Positions 13,150 to 26,969 of a DNA stretch of 62,245 nt are shown in pieces. A program made the position numbers and the translations under genes. Numbering within the stretch: the stretch's first letter is position 1; every line of letters starts with the position of its first letter. The stretch lies in assembly GCA_017418945.1 (NCBI GenBank), contig JAFOMI010000047.1:1-62245 (forward strand), given 5' to 3'. The notes under the pieces were generated by a model that worked only from the letters and a program-made list of their open reading frames with translations, had not been told where the DNA came from and ran no database searches. This stretch comes from Bacilli bacterium (lineage in GTDB: Bacteria; Bacillota_I; Bacilli_A; RF39; UBA660).

Positions 13150-13347
13150 TATATAAAAAAGGATGGTATTCCTATACTAAGGAGCCTTATTTGGCGGTAC
13201 CATCCTTTTTTTAACTTAATTATAATAACGGCTTAAACCGGCATGTTTTCATGCATCTATCTTGATGTTAGCTTTCATCAATAATTATTATTAGTTTACA
13301 CCAACCACTAATTCTCTTTAAATAATATATTAATTACTCTTCATCAA
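13150..13347 (-). promoter_or_regulatory. T-box riboswitch, Ala specifier (GCU)
   Basis: Stem I with AGAGA bulge and GGUUGGUGUAA distal loop. Specifier GAAA-GCU-A at 13270-13272. Antiterminator AAGGA-UGGUACC-GCC..GGC-UCCUU, then a U-tract. Confidence 0.92.
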
Positions 13348-14488
13348 ATGAATTTTTTCTTTCTAATTTTTCAGTTATTTTATATTTATCATCAATAAAT
13401 AACCATATAGTTTTAAGTATTGCAGTTACAGGTGTTGCAATAACCATACCAATTATACCAAAGAAATGACCAAAAACCAATAGTCCAATGATAATTGTTA
13501 CTGGATGAAGTTTCATTGTCTTACTCATAACAATTGGATGAAGTATATAACTTTCTATTAATTGTATTAATAAAACAACAATTAATATTGCTATTCCAAG
13601 TTTATAATCTGTAGCAAACGCTACTGCTACAATTGGAATTCCTCCAATATATGGTCCAATATATGGAATAATATTTGTAATAGCGTTCCATAAAGCAAAG
13701 AATACTGCTGCTCTTAAACCTGCAAATCCAAACGAAATTGCTGATACAGCAAATACTAATAATGCTATAAAACCAGTTCCTCTAACAAAACTAAAAACTT
13801 GTTCACTTATATTACTTAATAAAGTATGAGTACTTTTTCTATATTTCTCAGGAATAAATATATATATATTTTCTTGTGCTCTATCAAAATCAATTAATAA
13901 ATAGAAACTAATAATTAAACTTAATAATAATACTCCAAGTTTTGATAAAATTGTACTTAAAGTTGCAAATACTTTAGTTGGCATATTAGTTGTTAAACTT
14001 GTAAGTGAACTAGTTAATATTGTTTTAATATTTAATGCCTTATCAGCTTTTAAAGTATCTATATTTAACTTCTTTAAAATATTTGTAACAAATTCGTTAA
14101 CAGAATCAAAAACTGTTGGTAAATACTTAATTAAATCATTTAATTCTCTTCCTATTAATGGAAATAAATACGAACAGAATAAATATATTATCGCTACTAA
14201 TACTATATATACTATTGATGTAGCTACTGCTCTATTCATTTTACCTTTATTAGTCATTCTAACAATTAAAGGATTAAATAAATATGCTATCAAAATACCT
14301 ATAAATAATGGTGAAATAACTTTTACTATTGACCAAATAAACTTAAATACGCCCCATTCTTTATTAACAAGTGTTAAAACGTATATTGCAAGTACTATAA
14401 TCAAAAAATAAAGAATTTTTAATATTTTTGTACCAACACAAGTCATTTCATTAATATTTTTAGTATTAATTTTTTTATCTTCTCTCAT
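13334..14488 (-). CDS. AI-2E family transporter (PerM/YueF-like)
   Basis: Multi-TM protein with IAYLFNPL, NIIPYIGP and LHPVTII motifs. Confidence 0.9.
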   Translation of the reverse strand: MREDKKINTKNINEMTCVGTKILKILYFLIIVLAIYVLTLVNKEWGVFKFIWSIVKVISPLFIGILIAYLFNPLIVRMTNKGKMNRAVATSIVYIVLVAIIYLFCSYLFPLIGRELNDLIKYLPTVFDSVNEFVTNILKKLNIDTLKADKALNIKTILTSSLTSLTTNMPTKVFATLSTILSKLGVLLLSLIISFYLLIDFDRAQENIYIFIPEKYRKSTHTLLSNISEQVFSFVRGTGFIALLVFAVSAISFGFAGLRAAVFFALWNAITNIIPYIGPYIGGIPIVAVAFATDYKLGIAILIVVLLIQLIESYILHPIVMSKTMKLHPVTIIIGLLVFGHFFGIIGMVIATPVTAILKTIWLFIDDKYKITEKLERKNSFDEE

Positions 14489-22817: not shown

Positions 22818-23030
22818 AAAATAAAAAATACCTATGATGTAAGGACGAATAATCGCGGTACCACCTTACTTCATAGATATTTCTATGCTCTTAATAATTT
22901 AACGCATTTTTACGCCTTACTCTACTTTATTTAAGTAAGGATATCTAGAGTGATCTATTATTAATCTTATTATTAGTTTACACCAACCACTAACTCTCTT
23001 TAAATTTAATTAATAACCGTCTCTATCATT
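22818..23030 (-). promoter_or_regulatory. T-box riboswitch, Ile specifier (AUC)
   Basis: Stem I with AGAGA bulge and GGUUGGUGUAA loop. Specifier AUC at 22952-22954. T-box AAGG-UGGUACC-GCG..CGU-CCUU. Confidence 0.92.
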
Positions 23031-23511
23031 TATTTTCAATATCAATTATTTCAATATCATCAATTAATTTAATTTGTTCTTCCAAATTAATTTTCATTTT
23101 TTTCTTAAAACTAACAATATTTCTTCTAATCATTTCTGCTTGAAATTGAATTCGATTAGACTTTTCAAGCGCATCCCTAATAATGATATCAGCATTATTT
23201 TTAGCATCTTGCAAAATAAGATTTCTTTCTTGCTTTGCAACATTTCTCATGCGCTCACCAGTATTTCTAGCCATATTAATAGCTTCAGTTAATGTATCAT
23301 TTAATTCATCAAACTTTTTAGCTTTTGCAATTACTTCTTCAGTTGCTTTCATATTAGTAAGATCATTAACTTGTTTTTTTAAATTAATAATTTCTTCTTC
23401 TTTCTTTTTATTTGAACTAATAATTCTCTCAACTTGTTTAATTACATCATCTAAAAATGCATTAACTTCTTCTGGATTATAGCCATTAGGGGTATAGTTA
23501 AATTTTTTCAT
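23026..23511 (-). CDS. divIVA: DivIVA family coiled-coil protein
   Basis: N-terminal F...NGY.PEEV.AFLD motif and long coiled coil. Canonical sepF-divIVA-ileS context. Confidence 0.88.
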   Translation of the reverse strand: MKKFNYTPNGYNPEEVNAFLDDVIKQVERIISSNKKKEEEIINLKKQVNDLTNMKATEEVIAKAKKFDELNDTLTEAINMARNTGERMRNVAKQERNLILQDAKNNADIIIRDALEKSNRIQFQAEMIRRNIVSFKKKMKINLEEQIKLIDDIEIIDIENK

Positions 23512-24745: not shown

Positions 24746-26125
24746 TTAGAATTTAATTCTATCTTCAATATAATCTTTTAATTCATTAACATTTAAAGTA
24801 ATTTGCTTCATAGTATCTCTATCTCTTAGGGTAACTGTATTATTATTTAAAGTTTCATCGTCAATAGTAATACAATATGGAGTACCAATAACATCTTCTC
24901 TTCTATATCTCTTACCAATATTTCCTGATTCATCATAAGTACACATAAAGTATTTAGATAATTCTCTATAAATCTCTTTAGCTTTATCACTATGATTCTT
25001 TTTCATTAATGGTAAAACAGCTACTTTATATGGTGCGATTGCTGGAATAAAATGCATAACTTCACGAGTTTGACCATCTTCTAATGTTTCTTCTTCATAG
25101 GCATCGCACAAAACAGCTAATGTTAATCTATCACATCCAACAGAAGGTTCTATAACATAAGGAATATATTTTTCATTAGTTTCAGGATCTAAATATTTTA
25201 ATTCTTTACCAGAATGATTTGAATGAACAGTTAAATCATAATCTGTTCTATCAGAAATTCCCCATAATTCTCCAAAGCCCATTGGATAATTATATTCAAT
25301 ATCAGTTGTTCCTTTACTATAGAAAACAAGTTCTTCTGGTTTATGTTTTCTTAATCTTAAATTTTCTTCCTTAATACCTAAATCTTTTAAATAATTCATA
25401 CAAAAATCTTCGTAATAATTAAACCATTTTAAATCTTCACCTGGTTTACAGAAGAATTCATATTCCATTTGTTCAAATTCTCTAGTTCTAAAAGTAAAGT
25501 TACCTGGAGTAATTTCATTTCTAAATGCCTTACCTATTTGACCAACACCAAAAGGTAATTTTGCTCTCATTGTTCTTTGTACATTTAAAAAATTTACAAA
25601 TATACCTTGTGCAGTTTCTCCTCTTAAATAAACTTTATTCTTAGTATCTTCAGTAACACCCATACTTGTTTCAAACAATAAATTAAATTGTCTAATTTTA
25701 GTAAAATCTTTTTTACCACATTTTGGACAAACAATATTATTTTCTTCAATATATTTCTCTAATTCTTCGTTAGACCATCCGTCACCAGTTTCTTTACCAT
25801 TAGAAAATTCTTCAATTAATTTATCTGCTCTATGACGAGATTTACATGATTTACAATCAATTAAAGGATCAGAAAATGATGAAACATGTCCTGATGCAAC
25901 CCAAACTTCCGGGTTCATTAAGATAGCCGCATCTAAACCATAACTATTTGTAGATTCTTGTATAAATCTCTTCCACCAAGTCTTTTTTACATTATTTTTT
26001 AATTCAACACCAAGAGAACCGTAATCCCAAGTATTTGCAAGACCATCATATATTTCACTACCTTGAAATATAAAACCATATTGCTTACATAAATTTACTA
26101 TTTTATCCATAGTTAATTTTTCCAT
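24746..26125 (-). CDS. glyQS: glycine--tRNA ligase, alpha2 (eukaryote/archaea-type)
   Basis: [43 protein letters not shown] and anticodon-binding domain. Confidence 0.96.
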
Positions 26126-26142
26126 AATTATTCCTCCTTCAA

Positions 26143-26262
26143 ATAAAAAAAGATCCCTTTGATTATAGGGACGAGATTACCCGCGGTTCCACCCTACTTA
26201 TTCAAAAGAATCTACTCTTTTTTATATAGCTCCTAGGTTTCCAAGCCTAATCATCACTGCAT
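26143..26262 (-). promoter_or_regulatory. T-box riboswitch (Gly) with an apparently ultrashort Stem I
   Basis: UAGGG-UGGAACC-GCGGG..CUCGU-CCCUA antiterminator (bulge A fits U73 of tRNA-Gly). UCCCU..AGGGA-U7 terminator. No AG-bulge or distal loop upstream. Confidence 0.85.
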
Positions 26263-26268
26263 AAATAA

Positions 26269-26297
26269 ATTATATAATTTTTTTAATAATTAGTCAA
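26269..26297 (-). promoter_or_regulatory. sigmaA promoter of the glyQS leader
   Basis: TTGACT-17 nt-TATAAT on the minus strand. Confidence 0.75.
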
Positions 26298-26969
26298 TTA
26301 CTTAATTATTAAAGTTCTTCTAATAATTCTTATTAATTTTTTATGATGAAGTTTACTTTTTACTTCATATTTTGGTAATTGTAATAATAAGTTTTCATAC
26401 TTTAATAATTTCTTTGAATAATACTCGTAAAATAAATCATCTTTATTATCTAATAGTCTTGGGCCAAAATATATTTCATCATACGAATATGCTTCTTTCC
26501 CCTTTTTAAACTCGATAATTGTATATATTATATCGTCATCCTTAACAAGTTTTTCTCTTGTTATTTTATAACCTTGTTTAATAACAAATTTTCTTAATTT
26601 AACAACATCTGTATTAGATTGTACAACTATTTTATTAACATTTATCATTTTTTCAGTATTTGATAATATATCTTTAATAGTTCTAAAACCCATGCCAGAA
26701 ATTAATATAGTATCTATTTCATCTGTATTAACTATAGAAAGTCCATCACCAAGTCTTAAAGATATTTTATCTTGAACTTTATATTTTTCTATATTATTTC
26801 TTGCATTTTTTAATGCGCCTTCATGAATATCTGACGCAATTATTTTAATATTATCAAATTCATTGCATAAATAAATATCAAGTAAAGCATGGTCACAACC
26901 AATATCTATTATCTTATCATTATTATCAATGAATTCACTAATAGCTTTTAATCTTTTTGATAATCTCAT
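26298..26969 (-). CDS. trmK: tRNA (adenine22-N1)-methyltransferase
   Basis: LSKRL, DIGCDHALL, RLGDGL and GMG motifs. Follows sigA as in other Bacilli. Confidence 0.93.
   Translation of the reverse strand: MRLSKRLKAISEFIDNNDKIIDIGCDHALLDIYLCNEFDNIKIIASDIHEGALKNARNNIEKYKVQDKISLRLGDGLSIVNTDEIDTILISGMGFRTIKDILSNTEKMINVNKIVVQSNTDVVKLRKFVIKQGYKITREKLVKDDDIIYTIIEFKKGKEAYSYDEIYFGPRLLDNKDDLFYEYYSKKLLKYENLLLQLPKYEVKSKLHHKKLIRIIRRTLIIK

Follow-up and report, generated by a model that had tools for sequence, protein, structure and literature searches.

Can a T-box riboswitch that acts during transcription dispense with both the elbow-binding platform of Stem I and Stem II? The question is raised by the leader of glyS, a gene for glycine--tRNA ligase, in a 62,245-nt stretch of Bacilli bacterium DNA that was analysed as a whole (hereafter, the window). 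In the sections of a 2020 review cited here (PMC7583486), transcriptional T-boxes are described as generally needing the platform. According to the same sections, a truncated Stem I barely binds tRNA without Stem II, Stem II is dispensable in glycine T-boxes, and truncated Stem I is found in translational actinobacterial T-boxes, where Stem II is essential. Together with the relevant parts of papers from 2024 to 2026, they hold that co-transcriptional switches need the Stem I platform for fast and tight tRNA capture. The parts of a 2024 survey of glycyl T-boxes used here (PMC11404447) describe only long forms of Stem I, typically of ~100 nt, and the overview in a 2026 review (PMC12990946) lists two designs, canonical glyQ and ultrashort ileS. 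A full-text literature search found no description of a transcriptional T-box that lacks the platform as well as Stem II, although leaders of this kind may be mentioned in an older survey.

Here, we describe the anatomy of the glyS leader, its conservation and covariation, the codon-like variation of its loop, its match to the tRNA genes, its linkage to glyS and the energetics of its alternative folds. The leader is probably a working transcription-attenuation T-box that responds to uncharged tRNA-Gly, whose binding, at two contact points only, we infer from the sequences.

Anatomy of the glyS leader

The glyS leader occupies positions 26297-26145 of the minus strand and consists of a near-consensus promoter followed by a T-box leader of ~112 nt, roughly half as long as is usual for T-boxes. 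The sigma-70-type promoter (26269..26297) has TTGACT at 26297-26292, a 17-nt spacer and TATAAT at 26274-26269, as a first-pass annotation of this DNA had read it, and matches 11 of 12 consensus positions. It starts right behind the stop codon of the upstream methyltransferase gene and places the predicted transcription start at ~26262. The same annotation had described a short Stem I with a K-turn-like base, an A-rich linker, Stem III, an antiterminator with UGGAACC and a terminator, and all of these elements are found in the minus-strand sequence.

Stem I is ultrashort, with 29 nt (26229..26257), and its RNA sequence from 26257 to 26229 is GU-GAUGAU-UAGG-CUUGGAAA-CCUA-GGA-GC. It is composed of a C-stem (GU/GC), a K-turn with the strands GAUGAU (26255-26250) and GGA (26233-26231), a 4-bp stem UAGG/CCUA (26249-26246 with 26237-26234) and an 8-nt end loop, CUUGGAAA (26245-26238). 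By eye, its true base fits the T-box K-turn consensus of RF00230, GC-gaUGAa-stem ... stem-gGA-GC. The end loop contains the specifier U-GGA-A (26239..26243), in which the codon GGA (26242-26240) is flanked by U and A; a glycine codon followed by A had already been assigned to this apical loop, and the relatives described below share it. Neither Stem II nor Stem IIA/B is present in the window leader, as judged from the sequence and the Rfam alignment. Their place is taken by an A-rich, single-stranded, unpaired linker of 17 nt (26212..26228), with an AAGAG purine string at its 3' end.

The linker leads into Stem III, AUUC-UUUU-GAAU (26211-26200), which is followed by AA at 26199-26198 (whole feature, 26198..26211). 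The antiterminator (26165..26197), with the sequence GUAGGG-UGGAACC-GCGGG-UAAU-CUCGU-CCCUAU, comprises helix A1 (GUAGGG/CCCUAU), the 7-nt bulge UGGAACC (26191-26185) and helix A2 with a basal G-U pair. On its 3' side follow, in order, AAUCAAAGGGAUC, U7, GGAGG and ATG. The terminator 3' strand and U7 span 26145..26162, with the strand UCAAAGGGAUC at 26162-26152 and U7 at 26151-26145. A hairpin with U7 precedes the glyS ribosome-binding site GGAGG, which is placed past the U tract and is free; sequestration of the Shine-Dalgarno sequence in place of a terminator is not a feature of the window leader. The gene itself (24746..26125, minus strand) encodes an alpha2-type glycine--tRNA ligase of 459 aa (NF003211, E 2.5e-204), and upstream of the leader lie the gene for a 223-aa SAM-dependent methyltransferase, rpoD and dnaG.

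Against the Rfam T-box family RF00230, the window leader scores 41 bits (local E 1.5e-7), below the gathering score of 93. As anticipated for a leader of which only the 3' half should match, only Stem III and the antiterminator align well. The 63+27+13 consensus positions that correspond to upper Stem I and Stem II/IIA-B are deleted, and the base of Stem I is misplaced into the promoter. The AG-bulge/distal-loop platform, with its AGAGA and GGUGNRA motifs, is absent from the glyS leader. The first-pass annotation had likewise noted the absence of the AGAGA bulge, the GGUGNAA loop and Stem II, and the host genome bears out the contrast for the platform motifs. This assembly (868 kb in 64 contigs, 85% complete, with contigs of ~23-25% G+C) contains 14 T-box matches, of which the glyS leader is the weakest, and AGAGA lies ~15 nt 5' of a GGUGNRA loop in all 13 others. 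The lineage therefore still uses the elbow contact elsewhere. In the glyS leader, everything above the specifier is missing, so that the codon lies in the end loop and the elbow contact cannot form.

Two of the other T-boxes are located in the window, and their specifiers, AUC-A (22838-23038, minus strand) and GCU-A (13177-13353, minus strand), agree with their earlier assignment to Ile and Ala. Their first downstream ORFs are not those of the corresponding synthetases; one (MFLTIILLILGF...) presumably encodes a membrane protein, and the other (MKIIAIDGPSGSGKG...) we take to be a nucleotide kinase. Elsewhere in the host genome (G000), two near-identical T-box copies are found at contig ends, C51:3-182 (minus strand) and C2:72-251 (plus strand), which are probably one locus split by the assembly, or else a recent duplicate. 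The window also contains a ribosomal protein L21 leader (RF00559, 6544-6617, minus strand; 53 bits, over the Rfam cut-off).

Standard annotation overlooks leaders of the glyS type, since the Rfam cut-off excludes them and the T-box database TBDB, as its methods are described in the cited part of PMC7778990, relied on RF00230 and removed sequences under 100 nt.

Distribution of the short leader

A first survey covered the DNA upstream of glyS at 30 loci, from the host genome and 29 relatives. The short leader was found at 17 of them (the host and 16 relatives), and the T-box core is invariant in all 17. Four genomes from other families in the class (L029, L031, L037 and L043) carry ordinary long-Stem-I glycine T-boxes at the same gene. 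At the remaining nine loci, the T-box core was not found within 400 nt of glyS; in one of these, G017, the short leader is located farther upstream, ahead of an intervening gene. When the 17 short leaders were folded together by RNAalifold, the short Stem I, the antiterminator and a long-range helix around the antiterminator emerged unprompted.

A covariance model, R1, was built with Stem I, Stem III and the antiterminator. It gave full-length matches in 119 of 151 genomes (150 genera) of a family sample at E<=2.5e-8, and in 116 of 149 family genomes of an order-level sample at E<=1e-7, with none in the single sister-family genome of the latter. In a class sample, 12 of 13 family genomes match. 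Among 137 genomes from 25 other families in that sample there is one match, a canonical long glyS T-box (55.6 bits). A phylum scan, in a sample entirely of the same class, produced no member-level match in 148 non-family genomes. An exact-pattern scan with one genome per species returned at least 121 stretches, by a pattern that catches just 59 of the 96 aligned members defined below. Among the matches listed, 80 loci were fetched and 76 of them score 54-126 bits with R1; the other four are not members, namely the canonical glyQ T-boxes L190 and L213, the weak L255, and L192, which gave no match.

The host family consists of gut and rumen Bacilli with genomes of ~1 Mb. Among the matches listed, the named carriers are gut, rumen and digester MAGs, which bear labels such as Bacilli, Mollicutes or Tenericutes bacterium, 'Mycoplasma sp. 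CAG:472', 'Firmicutes bacterium CAG:884' and 'Clostridium sp. CAG:524'.

For the alignment, 100 R1 matches were used (6 of the 30 best and 94 taken by coordinates). Four of them, with 52-57 bits, proved to be the T-boxes of hisS, ileS, tyrS and pheS and were set aside, leaving 96 members. Their dimensions are narrow. Stem I has a median length of 28 nt (range, 21-32), and the linker one of 16 nt, with 15-17 nt in 84 of the 96 and a range of 13-23. From Stem I through the antiterminator the median is 92 nt, and from the K-turn to the U-run it is 112 nt (range, 98-144; 95 members with a clear U-run). The proposal that the leader is among the smallest tRNA sensors is thus a fair one, given that the constructs in the cited part of PMC12990946 measure 169 and 167 nt.

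The specifier loop and its proposed tRNA partner

In the end loop, U-G-G is invariant in the 96 members. The third base of the triplet is A in 82, C in 11 and U in 3, and the next base is A in 95 of 96. Variation in the third position therefore always yields a glycine codon (GGA, GGC or GGU). A purine after the specifier is a feature of all T-boxes. The host genes for tRNA-Gly(UCC) and tRNA-Gly(GCC) have the anticodon loops CUUCCAA and UUGCCAA, and both have U73; from these sequences, GGA matches the anticodon UCC, and the bulge UGGA matches the UCCA end. The U and A that flank the codon could also pair with A37 and U33 of tRNA-Gly, and the arrangement U-triplet-purine in a loop of 7-8 nt suggests the layout of an anticodon loop. 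As free strands, the window loop and the UCC anticodon loop form 7 pairs with -8.1 kcal/mol, as compared with -5.6 for GCC, although these rough values ignore loop geometry. The anticodon of tRNA-Gly(UCC) and A37 together read UCCA, the same four bases as U73-CCA. With UCCA present at both tRNA sites, the UGGA of the loop (26239-26243) and that of the bulge (26185-26191) are the same word directed at two ends of the tRNA.

Is so small a hairpin sufficient? By itself it is marginally stable (0 to -5.5 kcal/mol), and 16 of the 96 members form no stem when UGGNA is held open. This thermodynamic weakness, together with the statement in the cited sections of PMC7583486 that a truncated Stem I barely binds tRNA on its own, would fit a helper protein or RNA that replaces the lost platform and Stem II by clamping the K-turn and hairpin or the tRNA elbow, in which case the RNA alone would be an incomplete sensor. 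We regard such a helper as unlikely. No candidate emerged: K-turn binders of the L7Ae family (PF01248) are found in 0 of 26 genomes (the host, 24 family relatives and one sister-family genome). Moreover, the genes upstream of the leader differ among the relatives, and no conserved partner gene adjoins it. PF01248 is present in 12 of 15 genomes of other families in the class; T-boxes of the host family nevertheless keep their K-turn motifs.

The shared word UGGA allows for a further reading, in which the leader senses the acceptor end only and hence any uncharged tRNA with U73, the hairpin serving as a structural cap or a K-turn platform. The very small size of the hairpin would be in keeping with this, and, as the loop shares these four bases with the T-box bulge, it may have been conserved for a reason unrelated to decoding. 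The pattern of variation makes this reading quite improbable, because GG is invariant and the third base alternates among A, C and U as in a codon. Furthermore, the UGGC and UGGU loops (14 of 96 members) cannot pair with a UCCA 3' end, yet they fit glycine anticodons, and the tight linker length fits a ruler between two points. We therefore prefer recognition of tRNA-Gly by both the loop and the bulge.

Covariation and conservation of the discriminator

The proposed pairs are borne out by the aligned matches. In the 100 rows, 91.2% of the cells are paired, as compared with 77.1% after shuffling (the observed value is not attained in any of 500 shuffles) and 41-54% for slid partners, although these counts lean towards structure because the sequences are related and were aligned by fitting to the model. 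Double changes occur in 22 of 23 pairs. The inner pairs of Stem I have 27, 44, 33 and 32 double changes, which answers the call for a covariation check on related leaders, and in antiterminator helices 4 and 5 pairing reaches 99% and 95%, and double changes number 41-43; Stem III (helix 3) is covered by the same count. As the pattern recurs with covariation in ~100 other genera, it is far beyond chance.

The cited sections of PMC7583486 give the hallmarks of the T-box discriminator as Stem III with a 5' purine string, a 3' AA and a basal G-U pair in A2. All 96 members have AA on the 3' side of Stem III, and the basal pair of A2 is G-U in 83 of them and G-C in 13. Three purines (columns 79-81) precede Stem III in at least 91 members, with the spacing RRR-x-x-R and not RRRxG. 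In four leaders of one genus (L022, L026, L027 and L039), UA replaces the GGA or AGA of the K-turn 3' strand, which prevents the tandem G-A pairs from both forming; the rest of each leader is intact.

These observations bear on whether the leader is a decayed T-box, with a constitutive leaky terminator or a plain 5' UTR and no regulation. Its Rfam score far under the cut-off, the reduced genomes and the 33 of 149 family genomes without an R1 match, which indicate that the element can be lost, are what decay would predict. However, compensatory changes conserve the element across ~100 genera, the discriminator hallmarks are invariant, and the spacing and the promoter are phased. A decayed leader would not keep U-GGN-A in 96 of 96 members. 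The first-pass annotation had named lack of conservation of the short hairpin as a sign of decay; the hairpin is conserved and covaries, and is therefore not that of a decayed T-box. Decay is thus very improbable. Judged from the alignments, the short glycine leader is a real, strongly conserved class and no relic.

Gene linkage and transcription start

An ORF for GlyRS starts within 480 nt downstream in 74 of the 100 aligned matches. In the other 22 members, the first ORF encodes a LOG/'lysine decarboxylase'-family protein in ~13, as judged by eye (PF03641 was confirmed in both that were scanned), and a ProRS-like class II synthetase in two (L120/L304 and L147/L305). It has no Pfam match in six, and in one there is a weak match to Peptidase_C39 (20.6 bits against a cut-off of 22). 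These seven ORFs without a convincing Pfam match, between the leader and glyS, are ~150-200 aa long. The LOG-family gene lies between the leader and glyS at L091 and L104 (= L312 and L313) and at ~11 other loci. For 10 of these 22 members more DNA was taken, and in all 10 glyS is located farther down on the same strand; thus, every operon checked contains glyS. Where a gene intervenes, a glycine-specific switch would also control proS or a LOG-like enzyme.

Among the 96 members, 34 have a hexamer resembling a -10 element that ends 11 nt ahead of the first base of the model; most other offsets account for 1-8, and offset 16 for 17. The TATAAT of the window is at the same 11-nt offset. RNA contigs from four metatranscriptome runs cover pieces of glyS and of the upstream gene (26662-26966) only, and not the leader. 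That transcription starts farther upstream, with a full Stem I encoded inside the upstream gene (trmK in the first-pass annotation, which had raised this objection), is hardly credible, since an Rfam search at E<=10 found no T-box 5' half in 25900-26700, the short leader keeps its distance from the -10 hexamer in relatives whose upstream genes are unrelated, and the K-turn base of Stem I is directly beneath the short hairpin.

Terminator wiring

In the textbook arrangement, as given in the cited sections of PMC7583486, the 5' strand of the terminator is formed by the 3' strands of A1 and A2. The first-pass annotation had called an antiterminator and a terminator, and both are present, but they are not an ordinary strand-exchange pair: the helix before the U-run is built on the Stem III 5' strand and leaves the antiterminator 3' strand in place. 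In the minimum-energy fold of the window leader, the antiterminator hairpin is kept, and AGAUUCUUUUGA (26213-26202) pairs with UCAAAGGGAUCU next to the U-run. The partner of the terminator strand thus starts at the last linker base and runs through the 5' strand and the loop of Stem III to two bases beyond. The resulting helix encloses an intact antiterminator, both in this fold and in the RNAalifold consensus. The energy of the fold is -25.2 kcal/mol, as compared with -14.6 when the 3' strand is free, and Stem III exists only in the latter.

The same wiring prevails among the members. Of 95 minimum-energy folds, 81 have the Stem III region as the main partner of the strand before the U-run and none has the antiterminator in that role; in 12, the strand pairs with neither. 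The energy gained from the terminator has a median of -10.2 kcal/mol in the 95 members, as compared with -2.3 when the strand is shuffled. Not one of 30 shuffles attains the observed gain in 61 of these members, and no more than 3 do so in 84. A control based on counts is weak: this RNA is AT-rich, and 5 or more bases pair in 54.5% of the shuffled strands as well. By contrast with the members, all five canonical glycine T-boxes of other lineages that could be evaluated have the textbook terminator, which uses the antiterminator 3' strand; the U-run rule truncated another two too early for evaluation.

Within the host genome, at least 6 of 11 other evaluable T-boxes, all with a long Stem I, also have an enclosing terminator that competes with Stem III (e.g. 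CUAUGA ... UCAUAG). They are located at 22838-23038 (minus strand) in the window and at C31:9069-9269, C47:18443-18639, C52:11399-11580, C5:11016-11196 and C16:65826-66003 of G000. The five others adopt the textbook terminator fold. The six with an enclosing terminator indicate that this wiring is a trait of the lineage and is not confined to the glycine leader.

Removal of Stem III is a plausible off switch because, according to the cited sections of PMC7583486, an antiterminator without Stem III binds tRNA poorly, and the purine string latches onto the helix formed by the tRNA and the bulge. Thus, loss of Stem III and the purine string to the terminator would plausibly turn the switch off, and a Stem III held by tRNA would plausibly turn it on. 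This switching logic is less certain than the assignment of the leader as an attenuator that responds to tRNA-Gly.

Proposed mechanism and implications

On the basis of these features, a mechanism with two contacts may be proposed. At the first, the 29-nt Stem I, with its K-turn, a stem of 3-5 bp and the U-GGN-A loop resembling an anticodon loop, would pair with the anticodon of tRNA-Gly, and possible pairs with A37 and U33 would extend this to a loop-loop helix of 4-5 bp. At the second, a standard discriminator, made up of the purine string, Stem III, AA, A1/A2 and the bulge UGGA, would pair with the UCCA 3' end of the tRNA and reject charged tRNA. The fixed linker of 15-17 nt would set the spacing between the two contacts. 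When no tRNA is held, the strand before the U-run would pair with the Stem III region and extend the antiterminator hairpin downwards into a long terminator; by this pairing, Stem III and the purine string, and not A1/A2, would be taken away. With uncharged tRNA bound, Stem III would be kept in the discriminator, and RNA polymerase could read on into glyS. The order of these switching events, like tRNA binding and the flanking pairs, is what we infer from the folds and the tRNA sequences.

In its strongest form, the proposal is that a natural RNA of ~92 nt captures and proofreads tRNA co-transcriptionally by means of only an anticodon-loop mimic and a discriminator, without an elbow platform, Stem II or a K-turn-binding protein, and that its terminator strips off Stem III, with the 'antiterminator' helices folded in both states. 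We put this forward tentatively, as somewhat short of an even chance. The specifier usage, like the statements of PMC7583486 given at the outset, speaks against a working T-box of this build in general: 82 of 96 members use GGA, whose pairing is weaker than that of GGC-GCC, and the discussion of the 2024 survey (PMC11404447) ties tRNA binding by glycine T-boxes to strong GGC-GCC pairing. If the strong form is correct, the elbow contact and the A1/A2 strand exchange would both be dispensable for co-transcriptional tRNA sensing, and the leader would be the minimal natural T-box.

A glycine T-box without a platform or Stem II has been retained across an entire bacterial family of the gut and rumen, and the other T-boxes of the host still have the platform. 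The leader turns the minimum required for tRNA recognition and for the readout of charging into a question for the bench, on an RNA of ~110 nt. A terminator that targets Stem III would be a second way to wire a T-box discriminator, and it could be useful for engineered tRNA-responsive switches.

Comparison with known systems

The proposed loop-loop contact resembles the complexes between tRNAs that have complementary anticodons, which were reportedly studied in the 1970s by Eisinger and by Grosjean and colleagues. Like the loops in such complexes, the leader loop has 7-8 nt and a triplet that follows a U and precedes a purine, and it would face the anticodon loop of tRNA-Gly head to head, although the parallel is one of resemblance only.

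With the glyQS, glyQ and glyS T-boxes of Bacilli (B. subtilis, G. kaustophilus and O. iheyensis; RF00230), the leader shares a GlyRS gene, the K-turn, the lack of Stem II, a single-stranded linker, Stem III with its purines and AA, the UGGA bulge, the G-U pair in A2 and an intrinsic terminator. Unlike them, it has no AG bulge, distal loop or hinge, and its codon is located in the end loop and not in an internal Specifier Loop. Its Stem I has a median of 28 nt, against the ~100 nt given as typical for T-boxes in the cited part of PMC11404447. The specifier is mostly GGA in place of GGC, and the terminator pairs with the Stem III region in place of the 3' strands of A1/A2.

With the ultrashort ileS T-boxes of Actinobacteria (M. 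tuberculosis, M. smegmatis and N. farcinica), as these are presented in the cited parts of PMC7583486 and PMC12990946, the leader shares a Stem I that is too short to reach the elbow. In both, the tRNA would be held by the anticodon and the 3' NCCA end only, as we propose for the leader. However, the ileS T-boxes are translational and keep Stem II and the IIA/B pseudoknot, whereas the leader has a linker of 13-23 nt and a terminator with a U-run. The class II with ultrashort Stem I is defined by the S-turn of Stem II with the IIA/B pseudoknot and by Shine-Dalgarno sequestration, and the leader has neither. Thus, the glyS leader keeps the discriminator, the K-turn and the specifier of the T-box family, and it departs from the canonical form in the platform, the Rfam score and the wiring of its terminator.
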